From: a phage
Direction: 5' to 3' (one strand)
DNA: 64,000 nucleotides
Sequence record: OZ346222.1
Positions 1,146 to 13,693 of this stretch are shown piece by piece. A program made the translations under genes and the position numbers. Every line of letters begins with the position of its first letter. The first letter of the stretch is position 1. Below the pieces are notes generated by a model. It was not told the origin of the DNA and ran no database searches. It saw only the letters and a program-made list of their open reading frames with translations.

Positions 1146-1927
1146 CATTAGGAGACAGCAAATTGAAATTTATCTACAAAGAACACTACCACAAAGGTGT
1201 TGTGTGGAGCCTGTTTGACGGATCTGGTGGTGCAGTCATTGACTGGGCAAAAGCTGGGTATCTGTGCCTGTGCTTTAATGCAGAAGGTGCTGATCACGGC
1301 AGTTATGCAGAGGTGATAACCGATCATCCCAACATTCACTATGTGGATTATTGGATTGACCCATGGTTCCCTCAGGAAACTTTTTGCATGTACCCAGCTC
1401 CAGACTTTATTCTTGCATTTCCTCCGTGCACGCATTTAGCGGTATCAGGTGCTGCACATTTTAAGAAAAAGCTGGCTAAGGATCCTTTGATCCAAATTAA
1501 TGCTGTAAAGGATGCTCGGGTTGCGGAAGAGTTGGGAGAGATTTACGATTGCCCGTGGCATGTAGAGAATCCTGTAGGGGTTATGTCCACACTGTGGCGA
1601 AAACCTGATTACCGTTTTCATCCTTCGGATTATGGTGGGTATTTACCGGAGGATGATGTAAACCCCTGGTTTCCTGAATTTATAGCTCCACGTGATGCCT
1701 ATCCAAAAATAACTTGCGGCTGGATAGGCAATGGATTTATAATCCCGGCCACAAAACCTGTCCCGCAAATAGTTGACGCGGTTAGCGGGTATTCCATGCA
1801 ACACGCCAAGCTGGGTGGAAAGAGTGCAAGAACGAAGATGATCCGAAGCCTCACGCCACGTGGCTGGGCAAAAGCCGTATTCTTAGCAAACGAGCCTGTA
1901 GTAAGGAGCAGAATTAATGGGAAGTAA
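1133..1927 (+). CDS. DNA (cytosine-5) methyltransferase-like protein
   Basis: C5-MTase-like motifs: LFDGSGG (motif I), FPPCTHLAVSG (PC motif IV), VENPVG (ENV motif VI); only 264 aa; true start may lie downstream since 5' end overlaps terminator. Confidence 0.55.
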   Translation: MGLFALGDSKLKFIYKEHYHKGVVWSLFDGSGGAVIDWAKAGYLCLCFNAEGADHGSYAEVITDHPNIHYVDYWIDPWFPQETFCMYPAPDFILAFPPCTHLAVSGAAHFKKKLAKDPLIQINAVKDARVAEELGEIYDCPWHVENPVGVMSTLWRKPDYRFHPSDYGGYLPEDDVNPWFPEFIAPRDAYPKITCGWIGNGFIIPATKPVPQIVDAVSGYSMQHAKLGGKSARTKMIRSLTPRGWAKAVFLANEPVVRSRINGK

Positions 1928-3995
1928 ATTTATGGCATCTGCATACAACCGTTTCGGTGAGCCAAACCCGAAAGCAACTAAGTATAAAAGTGGGGGAAGT
2001 GTGAAACGAGACTATCGTGATGAAAAAGAGGTTGAAACTGTAGAGACTGTTTTAGAAAATACTAAAATCGTCCCTGTCCCACAACAAAATATCGGTCTGA
2101 TGGCTGCACAATATTTTGGTGTGCGATCAGCATTATCCCAAGAAGATGGTGTGACAGTCACTGCAACATATTTCCCATATTACGACCGCTACGGAAATCT
2201 GTCCGGTTTCAAAAAGCGTGACTGGACGATTCCTAAAGAGCAAAGAGGCCATTTCTCCGTTGTTGGCATAGTAAAGGCTAACTCTCAGATGTTTGGTCAA
2301 AAGCTGTGTGCATCTTCCAACAACCGTAAGCAGATTAACGTTTGTGAGGGAGAAGGTGATGTTATTGCAGCATGGCAGGCTGCATATCAGATACAAGTAA
2401 AAGGGATTCTCACCAACGCTAAAGCCCCGGCAAAGGTGAAACAGTGGGCTAAAGAGGTCCAGGACGGGATCGATGCAGTTATCAACGGTGGCGATCTGGC
2501 AGGAAAACCATGCCTGCCTTTTGTTGGAATTAACTGTGGATGTGCAAACGCAGTAGATACTTTTGCAAACAATGAGAAGTTTATCCGTAGCTATGGAACA
2601 GTTGTGCTGGCAATGGATAACGATGCAGCTAACGAGGTAGAGAAGCAAAAACACGTCATTAAAGGTGTTGAGGCCACGCACAATATCGCAGCATTTTTGA
2701 TGGCTGATAACGTTTACCACGTAGAATACCCTGGTGAAGTAAATGACCCTGACGGGGTAAAAGATATCCGTGACATGCTGAAGGCTAAAAAGCTGGAAGA
2801 TATTGTCAACATGTTCCGGCACCCTGTTAAATATGTGCCTGATGCTGTGTCGGATTTAGAAGACTTCTCTATCGAGTCTTTGCGGAAAAAGACTTCCAAC
2901 GGGGTAGATATCAGCGCAGAGTTCCCAAAACTGCAAAAAATGCTAAAAGGCTTGCACAAAGGGACACTCGTAATGCTTACAGGGCCATCAGGGGGCGGTA
3001 AAACAACTGTAGCTAAAAAACTGGAACATTGTATTGCAAGATACCTAATGGACCCGACATGCCCGAAGGCTGATGACTATGAAGAGGATGATCGTCTATG
3101 TATGATCCATCTTGAGGAGGACCCGGAGGAAGCAATTAACTCCTTGTATGCAAACCAGTTAGGGTTTGATGTTAAAGAGTTTGTTGAAGATCCTAGCCAG
3201 TTTTTAACTGATCAAGAACACGCAGAGATTCACCAATCATGGGCAAAAGCTGGAAAAATCAAAGTGTTCAAACATTTCGGATCTATTCCGGTGGACGAGT
3301 TGATTACCAAGCTTAAGCAAATGGTTTGCCTGTACCATTGCCGTTATATTGTGCTGGATCACCTGTCCATGGTAATTTCAGGGCTTAATGTTAAGGATGA
3401 GCGAAAAGAACTGGACATGGCTATGACTCAGCTGGCTGCGTTTTGTAAGCAGTTTAACGTGTTTATCTTAGTGATCGCTCACCTCAAACGTACAGAGATT
3501 GTGCCTCCTAAGGACAAGGATGGTAACCCGTTACCTTTCTGGTATCCTGTGCGAAAAGAGAATTTGCGAGGATCGGCGGGGCTTGAACAGTTGAGTTGGG
3601 TAGTCATAGGTGTCGAGGCCGAAGAAATGGTGGATCGTTCTCGTGGACGTGTCCGTCTGGTAGGTCTTAAAAACCGTCCAGCAAAAACTTTAGGTATTGC
3701 TGACACTTTGGTTATGGACCCGCACACAGGTAAGTTCCATGATGCCAGTAATTGGTACTGGGACAAAGAAATGCAAATGTTTACAGACGGAGAAGGTGGG
3801 GAGGTTGTTTGGAGACCTCAGGCTATGTTTGAGGATCAGGAGCATGCAGTTGTAGAAACACCTATGGGCAAGGTTGTGGCTGATAAGGTTGTAACTCCTA
3901 CTGTTAAGCCTGTTGACACGCAGGAAGACCTCCAGTACGATGATCCATCCTCTGACCCGGTCCCTGGTTTTGAGGATGATGAAACGCCTTTTTAA
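1917..3995 (+). CDS. DNA primase/helicase (TOPRIM primase + DnaB-like helicase, T7 gp4-like)
   Basis: TOPRIM-like CEGEGD and MDNDAA motifs; Walker A GPSGGGKTT; Walker B IVLDHLS; acidic C-terminus ending DDETPF. Confidence 0.8.
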   Translation: MGSKFMASAYNRFGEPNPKATKYKSGGSVKRDYRDEKEVETVETVLENTKIVPVPQQNIGLMAAQYFGVRSALSQEDGVTVTATYFPYYDRYGNLSGFKKRDWTIPKEQRGHFSVVGIVKANSQMFGQKLCASSNNRKQINVCEGEGDVIAAWQAAYQIQVKGILTNAKAPAKVKQWAKEVQDGIDAVINGGDLAGKPCLPFVGINCGCANAVDTFANNEKFIRSYGTVVLAMDNDAANEVEKQKHVIKGVEATHNIAAFLMADNVYHVEYPGEVNDPDGVKDIRDMLKAKKLEDIVNMFRHPVKYVPDAVSDLEDFSIESLRKKTSNGVDISAEFPKLQKMLKGLHKGTLVMLTGPSGGGKTTVAKKLEHCIARYLMDPTCPKADDYEEDDRLCMIHLEEDPEEAINSLYANQLGFDVKEFVEDPSQFLTDQEHAEIHQSWAKAGKIKVFKHFGSIPVDELITKLKQMVCLYHCRYIVLDHLSMVISGLNVKDERKELDMAMTQLAAFCKQFNVFILVIAHLKRTEIVPPKDKDGNPLPFWYPVRKENLRGSAGLEQLSWVVIGVEAEEMVDRSRGRVRLVGLKNRPAKTLGIADTLVMDPHTGKFHDASNWYWDKEMQMFTDGEGGEVVWRPQAMFEDQEHAVVETPMGKVVADKVVTPTVKPVDTQEDLQYDDPSSDPVPGFEDDETPF

Positions 3996-4053: not shown

Positions 4054-6447
4054 ATGAGTATGTGGTCTTTCGATTTTGAGTCATCCGGTTTGCTGGAAGA
4101 CCCAGATCTTTATTATCACTGCGGTCTGTTTAAAGAGCTGAATAAGAACCGTTTTATGCTGTTCCTTCCTCTAAATGACCGCACACACTACTCCGAGGAG
4201 GATATAGAAAAGGCTAAGAACTTCATTCTGTCAAAGAAAACTCTTTATAAAGATTTTGAAGTTCGCATAGCAGATTTTTCGGAGTTGGAAGGTTGGCTTA
4301 CAGGCAATTCTGACTGGTCACCAACAGCTTTGAACTGCCATAACTGCTACAGTTATGACTTTATGCTAATGGAAAGATTATCCGGTATTCATTTTGATAT
4401 GTTCCGTGATCCTAAATGCATGGGGACTATCAACGACCACCAGGTTAACCTGTTTGATACGTTGGCTATGAGCCGAATCTTGTGGCCTGATCGCCCTTTA
4501 CCAAAAGGTTGTCCGGACGCTGTATTCAACCCGGTTACTAAGAAAATGCAACCTGTTGGTCCTCACGGCCTTATGGCATGGGGCTACGCCCTTGGTAACC
4601 AGAAAGTTCAAATTGATGACTGGCGCGATCTTCCGTTGTGGAAGTATGTGGATCGTGTATTCGAGGACGTTATCATCCAGGAGCTGCTCTGGAAAGAGCT
4701 GGTAGCGGAATCAAAAGGTGTATTCTACGGCAAATCTGACATGCAGAACTTTATGTACGATCCAGCCAAAGAGAAGCCGAAAGGGTTCAAGAAGATCACC
4801 TGGAAGAACGCATTACGTCGAGGCATGCTGCAGCACTTCCTGATGGAGCTGCAGGCCCGTCAGGGTGTATACTTCGACATAGATGGAGCTATTGCTTTAC
4901 GTGACCGTTGCGATGCGTGGATGAAAGAAATCGCTGATCGTGTTGAACCACAACTACCTTTAAAAGAGCTGTCAATGTCTCAGCGGCCCAAGTTCCCTGA
5001 AAAGCCGTTTAACCAAGACGGGACAATCTCTAATAATGGTTGGAAATGGTTAAAAGATAAGCTTGGCTATCCTGTAGACATGAGTGCTTTAGAGTTCAAA
5101 GCCCCGCCTAAGCGAGCATTTACCTCTACAGGAGATGTCAGCAAGATGGGGATAAAATGGTGTGAAGAGATGGGCTGCAAAGACCCCGATAAGATGGCTG
5201 ATTTCTTGAGAGGCTATATTAAGGGCACCTCCACACCACAACCCTTACCTAAAGAGCTGATGGATCAGGCAATAAGTGATCTGCAGCAGAAGCGAATGCC
5301 TGACTGCAAGATACCTATGAAAATCAGCAATCAGGACGACATCAAGCGATACCTAATCAGTGCTGGTTGGCTCCCAACAATGTGGAGAACTAAAGATGTA
5401 ACTAAAGACAGCAAGAAGAAAGCTTTACCTGATGCAGATGTTGATGCACGAGTATATGCATATATGGACGAGCTTTTGGAGTCAGAGTATTGTGACCTAA
5501 TTATCAACTTCTGGAACAAAACTGATGCTAAGTTCCAGACAACCGTGCACAAGTTCCGAAGCTTTCCTAACTCCGAAAGGATTAAAAAGGAAGTATTCGG
5601 GAAAATACGTAGAAAAGCCAGGGCACTTATTACTTCTCCGCAACTGAAAGATACGTTTGGACACCTATGCCCAAATCTTGAAAAATTGAACGGAGAGATG
5701 GCTAAAGATATCGTCTTGTGGTTATCATTGCGAAACCGCAGATCGGTCCTTGATCCAATCAAGGAGGATAAGGTTGATACTGGTCTTCTTAATCACCCAC
5801 GTTTGAAGATTGACCATAAGCTTCCTGCTAAAAGCTCTGGATTAACAAACACTTCCAGACAGAAACACAGTATTTGTGCAAACATGCCTAAACCATCTCC
5901 TAAAGTGGTTATGGGTAAAGAGATGCGTAGTCTGTGGGGTGTTCCTCCGGGATACTTTGAGATCGGTATTGACGGGTCCAACTTAGAGCAGCTTATCGGG
6001 GCTTGGGGTGCCTTTGAGTTCGACAACGGCCTGTATTATGATGTTGTAAGTAACGGAGACGCACACCAAAACAATGCTGAGGCATATACAAAAGTGGCAG
6101 GCAGAGAGGTGTCCCGTAACGACGGTAAACCTATCACGTATGGGGTTATGTACGGGGCACAAAAAGATAAAGTTGCAGATATGTTGGACATCTCCCCAGA
6201 GTTGGGACAAAGGGTAATCGATGCACTCTGGGATGCCAACCCAGGTCTTAAGGGGCGCAAAGAGGATCTGGAGAAATTCTGGGAAGCAACAGGTAAGAAG
6301 TTTATCTACTCTTTTGATGGTCATGCTATCTGGACCCGATCTAAACACTCTTTACTTAATGCATACCAACAAAATGGCGGTGCATCGTTGTGTGACTTAG
6401 TTGGAATACTCATGCACCACCAGATGGTGAAGCGTGGGTGGTACGAT
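4054..6447 (+). CDS. DNA polymerase, family A (exon 1: 3'-5' exonuclease and polymerase motifs A and B)
   Basis: Exo I FDFESSG; motif A-like IDGSNLEQL; motif B-like KPITYGVMYGA; uninterrupted ORF runs to TAA at 6481-6483 but lacks the conserved C-terminal region; 3' boundary set at proposed 5' splice site. Confidence 0.75.
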
Positions 6448-6753
6448 GAAGGTGTTCGTCGTATTATTTATTACCATAAATAACATTGTGGCTTCATAGA
6501 GTAATCTATGTCGAATAACCTCTTTAACTGCGGGAAGCCTAAACCTTATGGCAAGGTAATCCGCAACGAAGCGCTCAAAAGAGCGAACGCTCAGAGGCCA
6601 TTCCGAAAGGAAGTAGACCAGCAAGTGCGGTCGAAATGGGAGGATTCCTGTGGTTGCTTATCATAGGAATATGAGATGGTCCGATCCTACGTGAAAACGT
6701 ATGGCTATGCACGTAATGGTGCGGGGTAGCTTAACGACCTACCTGAACTATTG
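6448..6753 (+). other. putative group I self-splicing intron (about 306 nt, no ORF) in DNA polymerase gene
   Basis: Four in-frame stops between two same-frame polymerase ORFs; P-like CTGCGGGAAG (6527-6537), Q-like AATCCGCAACG (6558-6568), R-like GTAGACCAGCAAG (6613-6625), S-like ATGAGATGGTCCGA (6671-6684) with R/S covariation; exon UACGAU (6442-6447) can pair with intron GUCGUA (6458-6463) giving U.G at splice site; G at 6753. Confidence 0.5.
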
Positions 6754-11515: not shown

Positions 11516-11545
11516 GCCCTGCCCGAAAGGGTGGGGCATTTTTAT
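11516..11545 (+). terminator. rho-independent terminator
   Basis: Same GAAA-tetraloop hairpin as at 1118, followed by T-run. Confidence 0.6.
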
Positions 11546-11562: not shown

Positions 11563-11979
11563 ATGACATTAGAAGATATCATTGTTAAACCTGAGAACTA
11601 TGACCAATACAACCTGTCAACTCAATCTGTAGACCTTGGATGCGCCACGGTCAGTGCGTGGCCGGTTAACGGAAAAGAGCTAGATAAATGCTTAGAAGCT
11701 CACATGTCTATTAACAAGTTTCTGGATGAAAATACTCACTGGCTTGAGGGTGCAGGAGTATATGCTTCATGGTTGGAGAGTATGGGATTCGACTACCAAT
11801 CTGAAGAAGGGTGGTGGAGCTATTTAGCTATCTGTCCAGAGACGCTACAATGCTTCATGAAATACTCTGAAGATTTAGAGTACCGGGCGGTGGTTGATAG
11901 TGCTATTGCCCGTTATAGCCGTAAACCTTTTTCCCACGACATTAAAACTGTGGAAGAGTTTGTTGAAGTTTTCTGTTGA
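11563..11979 (+). CDS. hypothetical protein (138 aa)
   Basis: AAGGAGA RBS. Confidence 0.5.
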   Translation: MTLEDIIVKPENYDQYNLSTQSVDLGCATVSAWPVNGKELDKCLEAHMSINKFLDENTHWLEGAGVYASWLESMGFDYQSEEGWWSYLAICPETLQCFMKYSEDLEYRAVVDSAIARYSRKPFSHDIKTVEEFVEVFC

Positions 11980-12004
11980 CACAGGTTGAAAGGTGTGCAA
12001 TTAT
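11976..12004 (+). promoter_or_regulatory. possible sigma70-type promoter
   Basis: TTGACA overlapping stop codon; weak -10 (AATTAT). Confidence 0.3.
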
Positions 12005-12075: not shown

Positions 12076-12273
12076 ATGATTTATCGAATCCGTGTAAGAG
12101 AAGATGCACCAGGCTGTTACTTTGACTGGCGTGGGTGGTGGTTTCTCCACCCAATGGATGGACTCACAGATAGAATGCTGGATGCTGCCCTTTATACAGA
12201 TACCGACATAGAGTATAATCTCTATCTGAAGGACGGTATAGATAACGGCCTGTTTGAAGCAATTCCTGTGTAA
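12076..12273 (+). CDS. hypothetical protein (65 aa)
   Basis: ATG 9 nt after AGGAGG; ORF-track start at 12013 likely too far upstream. Confidence 0.45.
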   Translation: MIYRIRVREDAPGCYFDWRGWWFLHPMDGLTDRMLDAALYTDTDIEYNLYLKDGIDNGLFEAIPV

Positions 12274-12341
12274 GAGACTGTGATAGCTATGTTTTATGAT
12301 CTTCCTGTAGCGCCACCACCTGTTGAACCCGGAGAACTAAG

Positions 12342-12767
12342 ATGATCTATGAAATGCCAAAACTGATTCGTGACGATGCCCAAAACGCTCACACCATTAT
12401 TATGGGCAAACGCATGGATATTATTTGTCATAAAGATTTCTGGGAAGGAAGTTACTTCACAGAGTATTTTGGTAAACTGGATAATGGTCTGCTGATCCAG
12501 TTCTACACCGATGCGGAAAACAACATTCCCTGGGAGTTCGAAACTGAAGATATTCATAAACTTTTCACCTTCCTCGATATTAAGGTTAAGGCCAAGTTTG
12601 AAGAGGGTGAGTGCGACGATTGTGGATTTTATGAGGTAACAGATTTCTATCTTCCAAGTGGTAAGAACCTTTACTATGAAAGCCACTTCGGTAACTCAAA
12701 TATGCCACAGTGCTGGACTGAGTTTTTTGAAATTGTGGAAGAGGAGCTGGCATATCGTGATTATTGA
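12342..12767 (+). CDS. hypothetical protein (141 aa)
   Basis: RBS GGAGAA; immediately upstream of macrodomain gene. Confidence 0.5.
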   Translation: MIYEMPKLIRDDAQNAHTIIMGKRMDIICHKDFWEGSYFTEYFGKLDNGLLIQFYTDAENNIPWEFETEDIHKLFTFLDIKVKAKFEEGECDDCGFYEVTDFYLPSGKNLYYESHFGNSNMPQCWTEFFEIVEEELAYRDY

Positions 12768-13215
12768 TACTGTAGAGGGAGATTTAATCTCCCTTTTTAA
12801 GAGCGGTGCTGGTCACCTGATCCACGGTTGTAACTGCTTCCACACAATGGGTAAGGGTGTAGCAAAACAGATTGCCCGTGAGTTCCCTCAAGCATTGGAA
12901 GCTGATAAAATGACTATGCACGGTTGCCTAAGTAAACTGGGCGCGTTCTCCCGCTGGGAGCACTTATCTCCGAGAGGTATTGTCTACGGAATAAATCTGT
13001 ATACTCAGTTCTACCCAGGGCCTAATGCTGAATATTTCTCAATACTGAAAGGCTTTGAGCGAGTCAATGAAGTATTTGAGGGGTCGATTTTACCATTCTA
13101 CATCCCTAAGATCGGGTGCGGCATAGGTGGTTTGAAGTGGGAACATGTAGAGGACATTATTAACCTTGCCACTTTTGATATAGATATTATCGTGGTGGAG
13201 TACAAAGAGTGTTGA
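12757..13215 (+). CDS. macrodomain protein, TARG1-like (putative ADP-ribose hydrolase)
   Basis: GDL, HGCNCFHTMGKGVAKQI and IGCGIGGLKWE segments resemble TARG1/C6orf130-type macrodomains; proposed GTG start after GAGGAG. Confidence 0.55.
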   Translation: MIIDTVEGDLISLFKSGAGHLIHGCNCFHTMGKGVAKQIAREFPQALEADKMTMHGCLSKLGAFSRWEHLSPRGIVYGINLYTQFYPGPNAEYFSILKGFERVNEVFEGSILPFYIPKIGCGIGGLKWEHVEDIINLATFDIDIIVVEYKEC

Positions 13216-13240
13216 CAGCTATATTTTAAGATGGTATAGT
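13212..13240 (+). promoter_or_regulatory. sigma70-type promoter
   Basis: TTGACA, 17-bp spacer, TATAGT. Confidence 0.5.
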
Positions 13241-13269
13241 CGCCACAACGATTAAGACAGAGGAGCACT

Positions 13270-13464
13270 ATGGAGACTAAAATCTTAATTCTAGCTGTGA
13301 TAGATACAACAGAAGGAGCCATGTTTGAATCTGCAGGAGGGTATTTCTACCTGCCCTATGGAAAAAGAACTTCCGAGCCGAGTAAAGATTCAATCCTTAA
13401 AGTGTTCCCGTGTGCTTTCTGGCTGGAGATCTTGGTAGAAGATTGCAGAGGACTAGGGAGATAA
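13270..13464 (+). CDS. hypothetical protein (64 aa)
   Basis: RBS AGAGGAG. Confidence 0.45.
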   Translation: METKILILAVIDTTEGAMFESAGGYFYLPYGKRTSEPSKDSILKVFPCAFWLEILVEDCRGLGR

Positions 13465-13466
13465 TT

Positions 13467-13661
13467 ATGAGAAACAAGAAAGAGCTTTACTCTGGTGAGT
13501 GGATAAACGATCAACAGGTAGGAGAGGTAACCTGCTTCCGGTGCTTTACTAGGTACAATCTTAAAACTGCACCAAAAAGTGTTCCAAAGACTGACGGTTA
13601 TTACATAAAAGAACCTCATTGCCCAAAATGCAAATGCCGATTATACTGGAGTAACCTGTAA
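13467..13661 (+). CDS. zinc-ribbon protein (64 aa)
   Basis: CFRC ... CPKCKC cysteine pairs; ATG after GGGAGATAA. Confidence 0.45.
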   Translation: MRNKKELYSGEWINDQQVGEVTCFRCFTRYNLKTAPKSVPKTDGYYIKEPHCPKCKCRLYWSNL

Positions 13662-13665
13662 AAGA

Positions 13666-13693
13666 TTGACATCTGAAAACTGCGGTGTATAAT
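13666..13693 (+). promoter_or_regulatory. sigma70-type promoter
   Basis: TTGACA, 16-bp spacer, TATAAT. Confidence 0.55.

Follow-up and report, generated by a model that had tools for sequence, protein, structure and literature searches.

A macrodomain gene of an rV5-like Vequintavirus assigned to the Tk.4/AdfM family, with a likely role against DarT2

The window analyzed in this work is a stretch of 64,000 nucleotides from a phage (sequence record OZ346222.1), and the element in question is a macrodomain gene located at 12757..13215 on its plus strand. The DNA of this region is 94-95% identical to that of about 120 rV5-like Vequintavirus genomes, and the window belongs to an rV5-like Vequintavirus, a phage of Escherichia coli. 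The best explanation for the gene is that it probably encodes an orphan, purely enzymatic DNA de-ADP-ribosylase directed against DarT2, as the Vequintavirus member of the Tk.4/AdfM family. An initial annotation, made from the sequence alone, had described the product as a TARG1-like macrodomain of the class that removes ADP-ribose from proteins, and as a candidate counter to ADP-ribosylating host defenses. The proposed counter-defense role holds and matches what T4 requires its homologue Tk.4/AdfM for, namely resistance to DarTG2. The proposed substrate does not, because the likely one is instead thymidine-linked ADP-ribose on single-stranded DNA (ssDNA). The gene is already annotated in many genomes and the function of the family was recently established. 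The additions made here are modest, namely a glutamine-type active site, the rejection of a neighboring gene as a partner, and the existence of natural deletion variants. The features that concern the gene itself are as follows.

12757..13215, plus strand: macrodomain gene, homologue of T4 Tk.4/AdfM; 152 amino acids, GTG start, TGA stop
12741..12746, plus strand: Shine-Dalgarno-like GAGGAG, 10 nucleotides 5′ of the GTG and within the end of the upstream gene; read from the sequence, with a putative function
12823..12858, plus strand: codons H23-G34 (HGCNCFHTMGKG), the predicted ADP-ribose-binding loop with His23 and Asn26; H23, G24, N26, M31 and G34 are invariant
12994..13008, plus strand: codons N80-Q84 (NLYTQ), with Gln84 at the position of the catalytic lysine of TARG1 (K84) and DarG (K80) in profile and multiple alignments
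13105..13131, plus strand: codons P117-G125 (PKIGCGIGG), the predicted diphosphate-binding glycine loop; P117, I119, G120 and G122 are invariant

The 152-amino acid translation of 12757..13215 contains both peptides quoted in the initial annotation, HGCNCFHTMGKGVAKQI and PKIGCGIGGLKWEHVEDI, which bears out the placement of the open reading frame (ORF). The Pfam Macro model (PF01661) matched the protein over its entire length (model positions 1-118 of 118) with 32 bits and an E value of 1.3e-7. The curated gathering cut-off is 22 bits, and the hidden Markov model check proposed for the macrodomain was thus passed. The match to PHROG 335 had an E value of 1e-60. The GTG start at 12757 lies within the final 11 nucleotides of a 141-amino acid gene (12342..12767), an overlap that had been noticed before and is correct. 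Orthologues in HdK5, nimi and rV5_ev147 are annotated from the GTG equivalent to 12757, and the tk.4 genes of RB49 and T4 have their ATG at the aligned position (MIIDTVKG.. and MIVKYIKG.., respectively). A mechanical ORF list runs the macrodomain ORF up to a GTG at 12658. Since the homologues begin at the position of 12757, this longer in-frame ORF was rejected as the gene, and so was a start at the ATG at 12676. Comparison with three Vequintavirus orthologues gave ratios of nonsynonymous to synonymous substitution rates (dN/dS) of 0.11-0.21, and the gene is under purifying selection. These analyses confirmed that 12757..13215 is a genuine macrodomain gene.

A tblastn search matched residues 1-150 of the protein to the Tk.4 protein of T4 and T2 with 41% identity (1e-32), and the identity to RB49 Tk.4 was 70%. 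In the reverse search, T4 Tk.4 matched only 12757-13206 in the window (2e-36). The motifs common to the window protein and T4 Tk.4 are HGCNCFHTMG, NLYTQ..PGPN and PxIGxGxG. On the basis of this full-length, reciprocal homology, the gene is assigned to the Tk.4/AdfM family (PHROG 335). The family is widespread: a macrodomain protein of this kind was found by tblastn in 2,810 of 50,697 phage records (about 5.5%), and macro domains have been reported in about 41% of myoviruses (PMC9503650). The best and only matches in NCBIfam (2e-12) and PADLOC (2e-14) were DarG models, which cover the macrodomain part only. The NCBIfam model was matched at positions 3-143 of 338, with 47 bits versus a cut-off of 250. 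Relatives with about 40% identity are encoded at 33 bacterial loci, mostly from Rhodobacterales and Hyphomicrobiaceae, plus Nitrospirales and Desulfosarcina. No DarT2-like ORF was found within 4 kb of these 33 genes in a scan based on a single, narrow peptide pattern and a single DarT2 query, which makes this a weak negative. Among the phage relatives, the GenBank labels for the gene include 'macro domain protein', 'O-acetyl-ADP-ribose deacetylase', 'phosphatase', 'Poa1p-like family protein' and 'T4-like protein with Macro domain'.

The residues that are expected to form the active site were identified using an alignment of 27 homologues sharing 29-80% identity, all of which have H23, G24, N26, M31, G34, A36, N80, Q84, G88, P117, I119, G120 and G122. 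The loop H23-G34 aligns with His24/Asn27 of SCO6735, a Streptomyces coelicolor enzyme, and with the catalytic Asn of DarG and of PhiKZ AdfM. The column of the catalytic lysine, occupied by ITKK in TARG1 and NFPTKK in DarG, has NLYTQ in the window protein. The TARG1 catalytic dyad Lys84 and Asp125 is therefore replaced by Gln84 and Gly124, and Lys80 of the DarG NFPTK motif is absent as well. In the glycine loop, whose aligned counterparts are PRIGCGLDR in TARG1 and PPLGVGNGG in DarG, Gly124 stands where TARG1 has Asp125. Catalysis by a lysine of the TARG1 or DarG type was thus ruled out by alignment. An absence of catalytic residues had been named as a point that could overturn the macrodomain assignment. 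Those of TARG1 are indeed missing, but a set of the SCO6735 type is present: a Gln at the catalytic-lysine position, the conserved Asn, a His two residues before the backbone-carbonyl residue, and the Gly loop. Specifically, H23, N26, Q84 and G120-G125 align with H24, N27 and Q85 of SCO6735 and its PRIGCGLAGG loop. The Tk.4/AdfM signature, consisting of His23, Asn26, Gln84 and the P-x-I-G-x-G loop, is also found in the Tk.4 proteins of T4 and RB49, both of which share the Gln, whereas PhiKZ gp104 has retained the lysine. An equivalent of Gln84, together with the His and the Asn in an NAY[TI]Q pattern, is present in 31 of the 31 bacterial relatives that cover the site.

Among characterized enzymes, a Gln is found in this column only in SCO6735 and the related BT1257. 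DNA modified by DarT is efficiently freed of its thymidine-linked ADP-ribose by SCO6735, which is inactive as a Q85A or Q85E mutant and depends on Asn27 for the positioning of Gln85; a mechanism mediated by water has been proposed for it (PMC9411070). Judged by these alignments, the window protein fits a Gln-type, SCO6735-like active site. What is new here is that the whole Tk.4/AdfM clade, T4 included, has an active site of this type. As the clade has the Gln of SCO6735 and not the Lys of DarG, the reaction mechanism that was assumed for it by analogy with DarG probably does not apply.

The AlphaFold (AF2) model of the protein, built on the 27-homologue alignment, had a predicted local distance difference test (pLDDT) score of 93.8 and a predicted template modeling score of 0.88. 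It includes the three-layer alpha/beta/alpha macro fold, and a Foldseek search returned 181 PDB matches at E<=0.001, of which the named ones are macrodomains or engineered macrodomain scaffolds. The top match was TARG1, with template modeling (TM) scores of 0.79/0.85, and TARG1, the Thermus aquaticus DarG macrodomain (TaqDarG) and Poa1p had E values of about 1e-9. The best PDB neighbors of the model were TARG1, the DarG macrodomains of T. aquaticus and Mycobacterium tuberculosis, Poa1p, BT1257 and SCO6735; the 20 top matches comprised TARG1, DarG, Poa1p, BT1257 and one engineered serine-hydrolase scaffold (4j4z, rank 19). In sequence searches of the PDB, the best matches were the DarG macrodomains of M. 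tuberculosis and T. aquaticus (4.3e-7 with the single sequence; 7.9e-17 and 1e-15 with the profile), followed by TARG1, SCO6735, BT1257 and Poa1p. All 16 PDB matches of the family profile at E<=0.01 were DarG, TARG1, SCO6735, BT1257, Poa1p or TTHA0132. The nearest neighbors therefore belong to the ALC1-like class (TARG1/DarG/Poa1p/SCO6735) and not to the MacroD, PARG or viral nsP3 types. The description as TARG1-like was right with respect to this class, in which TARG1 is the top Foldseek match, but it does not extend to a protein glycohydrolase of the TARG1 type, given that the protein has Gln84 and Gly124 instead of Lys84 and Asp125.

The function of the family has been addressed in other phages. 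Genome-wide transposon sequencing described in a preprint found T4 tk.4 to be the single gene depleted on a host expressing DarTG2; a clean tk.4 knockout was DarTG2-sensitive, and the gene was renamed adfM, for anti-DarT factor macrodomain (bioRxiv 10.1101/2025.11.20.689424). This role fits the earlier observation that T4 lacking adfA and adfN was still resistant to DarTG2 (PMC11825919). According to the literature, T4 tk.4 is non-essential on K-12. In vitro, the PhiKZ protein gp104 (AdfM) clears ssDNA of the ADP-ribose added by DarT2, and it also relieves the toxicity of DarT2 (PMC13309987). The DarTG systems carried by E. coli modify ssDNA (PMC7003065). Beyond the fold, family membership, active-site residues and purifying selection that the analysis established, we infer the substrate and the role of the window protein; a likely anti-DarT2 role is drawn from the genetics of T4 tk.4/adfM and the biochemistry of PhiKZ gp104 and SCO6735.

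According to the proposed mechanism, the protein would be expressed from a block of small genes located downstream of the replication genes. In hosts with DarTG2, DarT2 would ADP-ribosylate thymidines in TNTC motifs of the phage ssDNA, blocking replication. The phage macrodomain would bind the ADP-ribose through its HGCN..MGxG and PxIGCGxGG loops and hydrolyze the bond between thymine N3 and the ribose, restoring a replicable template. The chemistry would probably follow SCO6735 and not the lysine-based catalysis of DarG and TARG1: Asn26 would hold Gln84, which in turn would place the distal ribose for hydrolysis by an activated water.

Several points weigh against this explanation. The protein is no more than 41% identical to T4 AdfM, for which the evidence is of a genetic kind and was released as a preprint. 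The missing catalytic Lys of DarG makes the presumed activity dependent on the analogy with SCO6735, an enzyme with about 25% identity. The class is promiscuous, as TARG1 and SCO6735 also act on protein ADP-ribose, and a comparative-genomics survey presents phage macrodomains as mainly targeting soluble ADP-ribose derivatives (PMC9503650). A literature search for DarTG2 acting on Vequintavirinae found no direct test. We consider the explanation likely and no more than that because hydrolysis by Tk.4-type proteins is predicted and the role in the Vequintavirus orthologues is proposed by analogy.

Other substrates were considered. The protein could be a hydrolase of small ADP-ribose derivatives, i.e., a Poa1p-like ADP-ribose-1″-phosphate phosphatase, a deacetylase of O-acetyl-ADP-ribose, or an enzyme that breaks down toxic metabolites or immune signals derived from NAD, which we regard as unlikely. 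Poa1p is among the best matches in sequence and structure, His23 aligns with the His23 region of Poa1p, and according to a proposal by Iyer et al. it is mainly soluble derivatives that phage macrodomains counter (PMC9503650). GenBank and PHROG name the family 'phosphatase' or 'O-acetyl-ADP-ribose deacetylase', and Tk.4 was historically labeled 'A1pp phosphatase'. However, these names are homology transfers, while the only functional data for the family, those on T4 tk.4, point to DarTG2, and the Gln-type active site is of the type shown to cleave thymidine-linked ADP-ribose from DNA. Furthermore, no KptA/Tpt1, 2H or sirtuin gene was seen adjoining the macrodomain gene in a Pfam scan. Removal of ADP-ribose from proteins, by which a TARG1-like enzyme would reverse the marks of host ADP-ribosyltransferase toxins on phage or host proteins or tune ADP-ribosylation carried out by phage enzymes, is quite improbable. 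TARG1 is the top structural neighbor and SCO6735 also strips ADP-ribose from auto-modified PARP1 (PMC9411070), but the Lys84/Asp125 dyad that cleaves glutamate esters is replaced by Gln84/Gly124, neither the neighboring genes nor the scanned proteins of the window yielded an ADP-ribosyltransferase, and the only phenotype of the T4 homologue in the reported screens is DarTG2 sensitivity.

An activity on RNA, for example against CmdT-like mRNA ADP-ribosyltransferases or other RNA-targeting toxins, has very little probability. Although E. coli uses the ADP-ribosylation of RNA against phages (PMC11618068; PMC11833690) and some macrodomains reverse RNA marks, the Gln-type enzyme SCO6735 is inactive on RNA ADP-ribosylated at the 2′-OH, guanine marks are reversed by NADARs and not by macrodomains, and no genetic link between Tk.4 and CmdTAC was found in the literature consulted. 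It is also highly improbable that DarT2 is neutralized mainly by binding of the toxin, or that the protein is a non-catalytic reader of ADP-ribose. In vitro, DarT is inhibited even by catalytically inactive forms of SCO6735, DarG and TARG1 (PMC9411070), and the replacement of alleles between near-identical phages, described below, could reflect toxin-specific binding. Against this, His23, Asn26, Gln84 and the glycine loop are invariant among homologues with identities as low as 29% and up to 80%, which argues for catalysis, and the 152-amino acid protein has no counterpart of the C-terminal DarT-binding domain of DarG, whose model it matches at 3-143 of 338. Hydrolysis of the DNA mark introduced by DarT2 remains the preferred reading.

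The gene varies among related phages. In a comparison of window positions 12700-13400 with rV5_ev147, the DNA of the macrodomain gene was 60-87% identical and both flanks were 95-99% identical, a divergence hotspot that suggests allele replacement by recombination. The protein is closer to Tk.4 of the Krischvirus RB49 (70%) than to that of T4 (41%), and the sole homologues of the 141-amino acid neighbor outside Vequintavirus are found in Krischvirus (39%). Both facts point to exchange, and they hint that genes were exchanged between unrelated E. coli phages of the genera Vequintavirus and Krischvirus. Losses were found too. A 9-nucleotide direct repeat, CAGTTCTAC, is present at window positions 12498-12506 and 13006-13014, encoding QFY in both genes. 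In a related 135.5-kb contig (Logan ERR11560567; L007, 3001-3366), the same slot is occupied by a 121-amino acid fusion ORF (P0017) consisting of the first 55 codons of the 141-amino acid gene and macrodomain codons 85-152, joined exactly at the repeat CAGTTCTAC. A deletion between the repeats removes His23, Asn26 and Gln84. Other Vequintavirus-like contigs of 12.9-135 kb (P0019, P0033 and P0050) have internally deleted (92 amino acids) or frameshifted (96-97 amino acids) alleles. As loss alleles occur on several contigs, the macrodomain gene is lost repeatedly in nature. Purifying selection, sporadic loss and allele turnover fit a conditionally useful, accessory anti-defense gene.

A further possibility, to which we give a low probability, is that the Gln-type Tk.4/AdfM proteins do not simply mimic DarG but are a distinct mechanistic clade whose alleles are exchanged among unrelated E. 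coli phages (Vequintavirus and Krischvirus) and would diversify through recognition of DarT2 variants, or else that they would handle additional base-linked ADP-ribose marks. Recognition of DarT2 variants would have a parallel in SCO6735, which was reported to inhibit the toxin directly. If this possibility were true, the allele carried would decide which DarT-family toxins a phage overcomes.

The upstream gene that overlaps the macrodomain gene had been suggested as a functional partner.

12342..12767, plus strand: upstream gene of 141 amino acids; PHROG 8157 ('unknown function'); overlaps the macrodomain gene by 11 nucleotides

This suggestion was not supported. The gene was present in 177 phage records, all of them Vequintavirus or Krischvirus, whereas the macrodomain was present in 2,810, and a search of 5.8 billion proteins returned only 4 homologues. 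The protein had no match in Pfam, NCBIfam or PADLOC, and its AF2 model (pLDDT 84) had no significant fold match in the PDB (best E value, 0.078). In RB49 the homologue (39% identity) adjoins dam, about 9 kb from tk.4, and in T4 it is vs that stands upstream of tk.4. Its rarity, the lack of linkage in RB49 and the lack of a family or fold match ruled it out as a conserved partner. The 11-nucleotide overlap suggests co-transcription and translational coupling but not a conserved functional pair; the two genes are probably co-transcribed and translationally coupled in the Vequintavirus lineage, and the 141-amino acid gene is an operon neighbor only, within Vequintavirus. A 130-amino acid antisense ORF (12294-12686, minus strand), wholly within the region of this gene, is probably spurious.

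The surroundings of the gene include the following features.

1917..3995, plus strand: DnaB-like primase/helicase, upstream of the macrodomain gene
4054..6483, plus strand: family-A DNA polymerase, upstream of the macrodomain gene
11516..11537, plus strand: intrinsic-terminator-like hairpin, which would close the preceding transcription unit; the equivalent place in HdK5 has an annotated terminator
11976..12004, plus strand: sigma-70-like promoter candidate TTGACA-17-AATTAT with TG, 5′ of a three-gene block at 12076..13215; consensus scan only
13212..13240, plus strand: near-consensus sigma-70-like promoter TTGACA-17-TATAGT with TG, beginning at the macrodomain stop codon and placed to serve the next small genes; 11 of 12 positions, consensus match only
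13666..13693, plus strand: consensus-type sigma-70 promoter TTGACA-16-TATAAT, between small genes

The macrodomain gene is part of a long run of small ORFs located 3′ of the helicase and polymerase genes on the same strand. Matches to sigma-70-like promoters numbered 24 between 9800 and 15200, where 10.5 +/- 3.8 were expected (about twice the shuffled expectation); such promoter candidates are consensus matches and do not constitute evidence of function. Early expression of the macrodomain gene is plausible from this context of small ORFs and sigma-70-like promoters. The minus-strand half of the window (41603-62733) encodes a ClpP-like protease, the nrdD, nrdB and nrdA products and an ATP-dependent DNA ligase, and a tRNA scan of the window found none. 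Two ORFs 3′ of the macrodomain gene, 13467-13661 on the plus strand encodes a protein with a Phage_zn_bind_2 zinc-binding domain (PF23903, 8e-23; PHROG 4864). Sixteen GenBank records named 'Campylobacter phage' (MG0656xx), with Campylobacter jejuni as the host, are about 94% identical to the rV5-like region over 2.8 kb; this host assignment is odd and may reflect contamination or mislabeling.

Phages of the rV5 type serve as candidates with a broad host range for biocontrol and therapy, and knowledge of an AdfM-type gene helps to predict how they perform on E. coli strains with DarTG2. The natural loss of the gene in some relatives matters for the same prediction. Otherwise, the macrodomain gene is an ordinary representative of a family that is very common among phages.

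Comparison with known systems places the protein as follows. The macrodomain of DarG (M. tuberculosis, 5M3I; T. aquaticus, 5M31) is the best profile match and shares the fold, the conserved Asn and a G-x-G-G-L loop that lacks the Asp of TARG1. However, Lys80 corresponds to Gln84 in the phage protein, whose 152 amino acids include no C-terminal DarT-binding domain, and no darT is adjacent. The neighbors of the macrodomain gene had no Pfam match, and a tblastn search of the window with Pseudomonas aeruginosa DarT2 gave a best E value of 1.6. A phage-borne toxin-antitoxin pair formed by DarT and the macrodomain was ruled out, as the window has neither a DarT2-like ORF nor a second macrodomain. 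Human TARG1/OARD1 (C6orf130) has a similar C-terminal motif (PRIGCGLDRLQWENV versus PKIGCGIGGLKWEHV) and shares a His equivalent to His32, and it also cleaves thymidine-linked ADP-ribose from DNA. It differs in Lys84, Asp125 and Ser35, which are Gln, Gly and Asn in the phage protein, and the identity is 22-25%. Because of its catalytic residues, domain architecture and gene context, the window protein is of neither the TARG1 nor the DarG type. Yeast Poa1p, the ADP-ribose-1″-phosphate phosphatase from which the 'phosphatase' annotation derives, belongs to the same class of macrodomains and resembles the phage protein in its N-terminal motif (HSCNC versus HGCNC), but it includes long insertions and superimposes with TM scores of 0.65-0.71 and a root-mean-square deviation of 4.6-5 Å.

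PhiKZ gp104 (AdfM), the DarG2-like protein of a chimallivirus, is likewise a phage orphan macrodomain that counters DarTG2 and has the catalytic Asn. With 22% identity, a DarG-type Lys (FPTKDNW) and import into the phage nucleus, it nevertheless belongs to a clade separate from that of Tk.4, with which it has the name AdfM in common. SCO6735 (S. coelicolor, PDB 5E3B) and Bacteroides BT1257 (2FG1) are both ALC1-like and have the pattern His-x-x-Asn ... Asn-x-x-x-Gln ... PRIGCGxxGG. SCO6735, too, is an orphan enzyme; it releases thymidine-linked ADP-ribose from DNA and confers protection from DarT. It has about 25% identity to the phage protein, is cellular and not viral, as is BT1257, and has a longer, lysine-bearing mobile loop after the Gln (QHGMKTGSKG), which the phage protein (QFYPGPN) lacks. 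The likeness is greatest to the Tk.4 proteins of T4 and RB49. T4 belongs to Straboviridae and not to Vequintavirus, and its gene order is vs - tk.4 - tk.3, whereas the window gene follows the 141-amino acid ORFan and starts with GTG. Yet the proteins have the same length, align over their full length, share the same motifs and the Gln at the lysine position, and in each case are stand-alone macrodomains of a large lytic E. coli myovirus.

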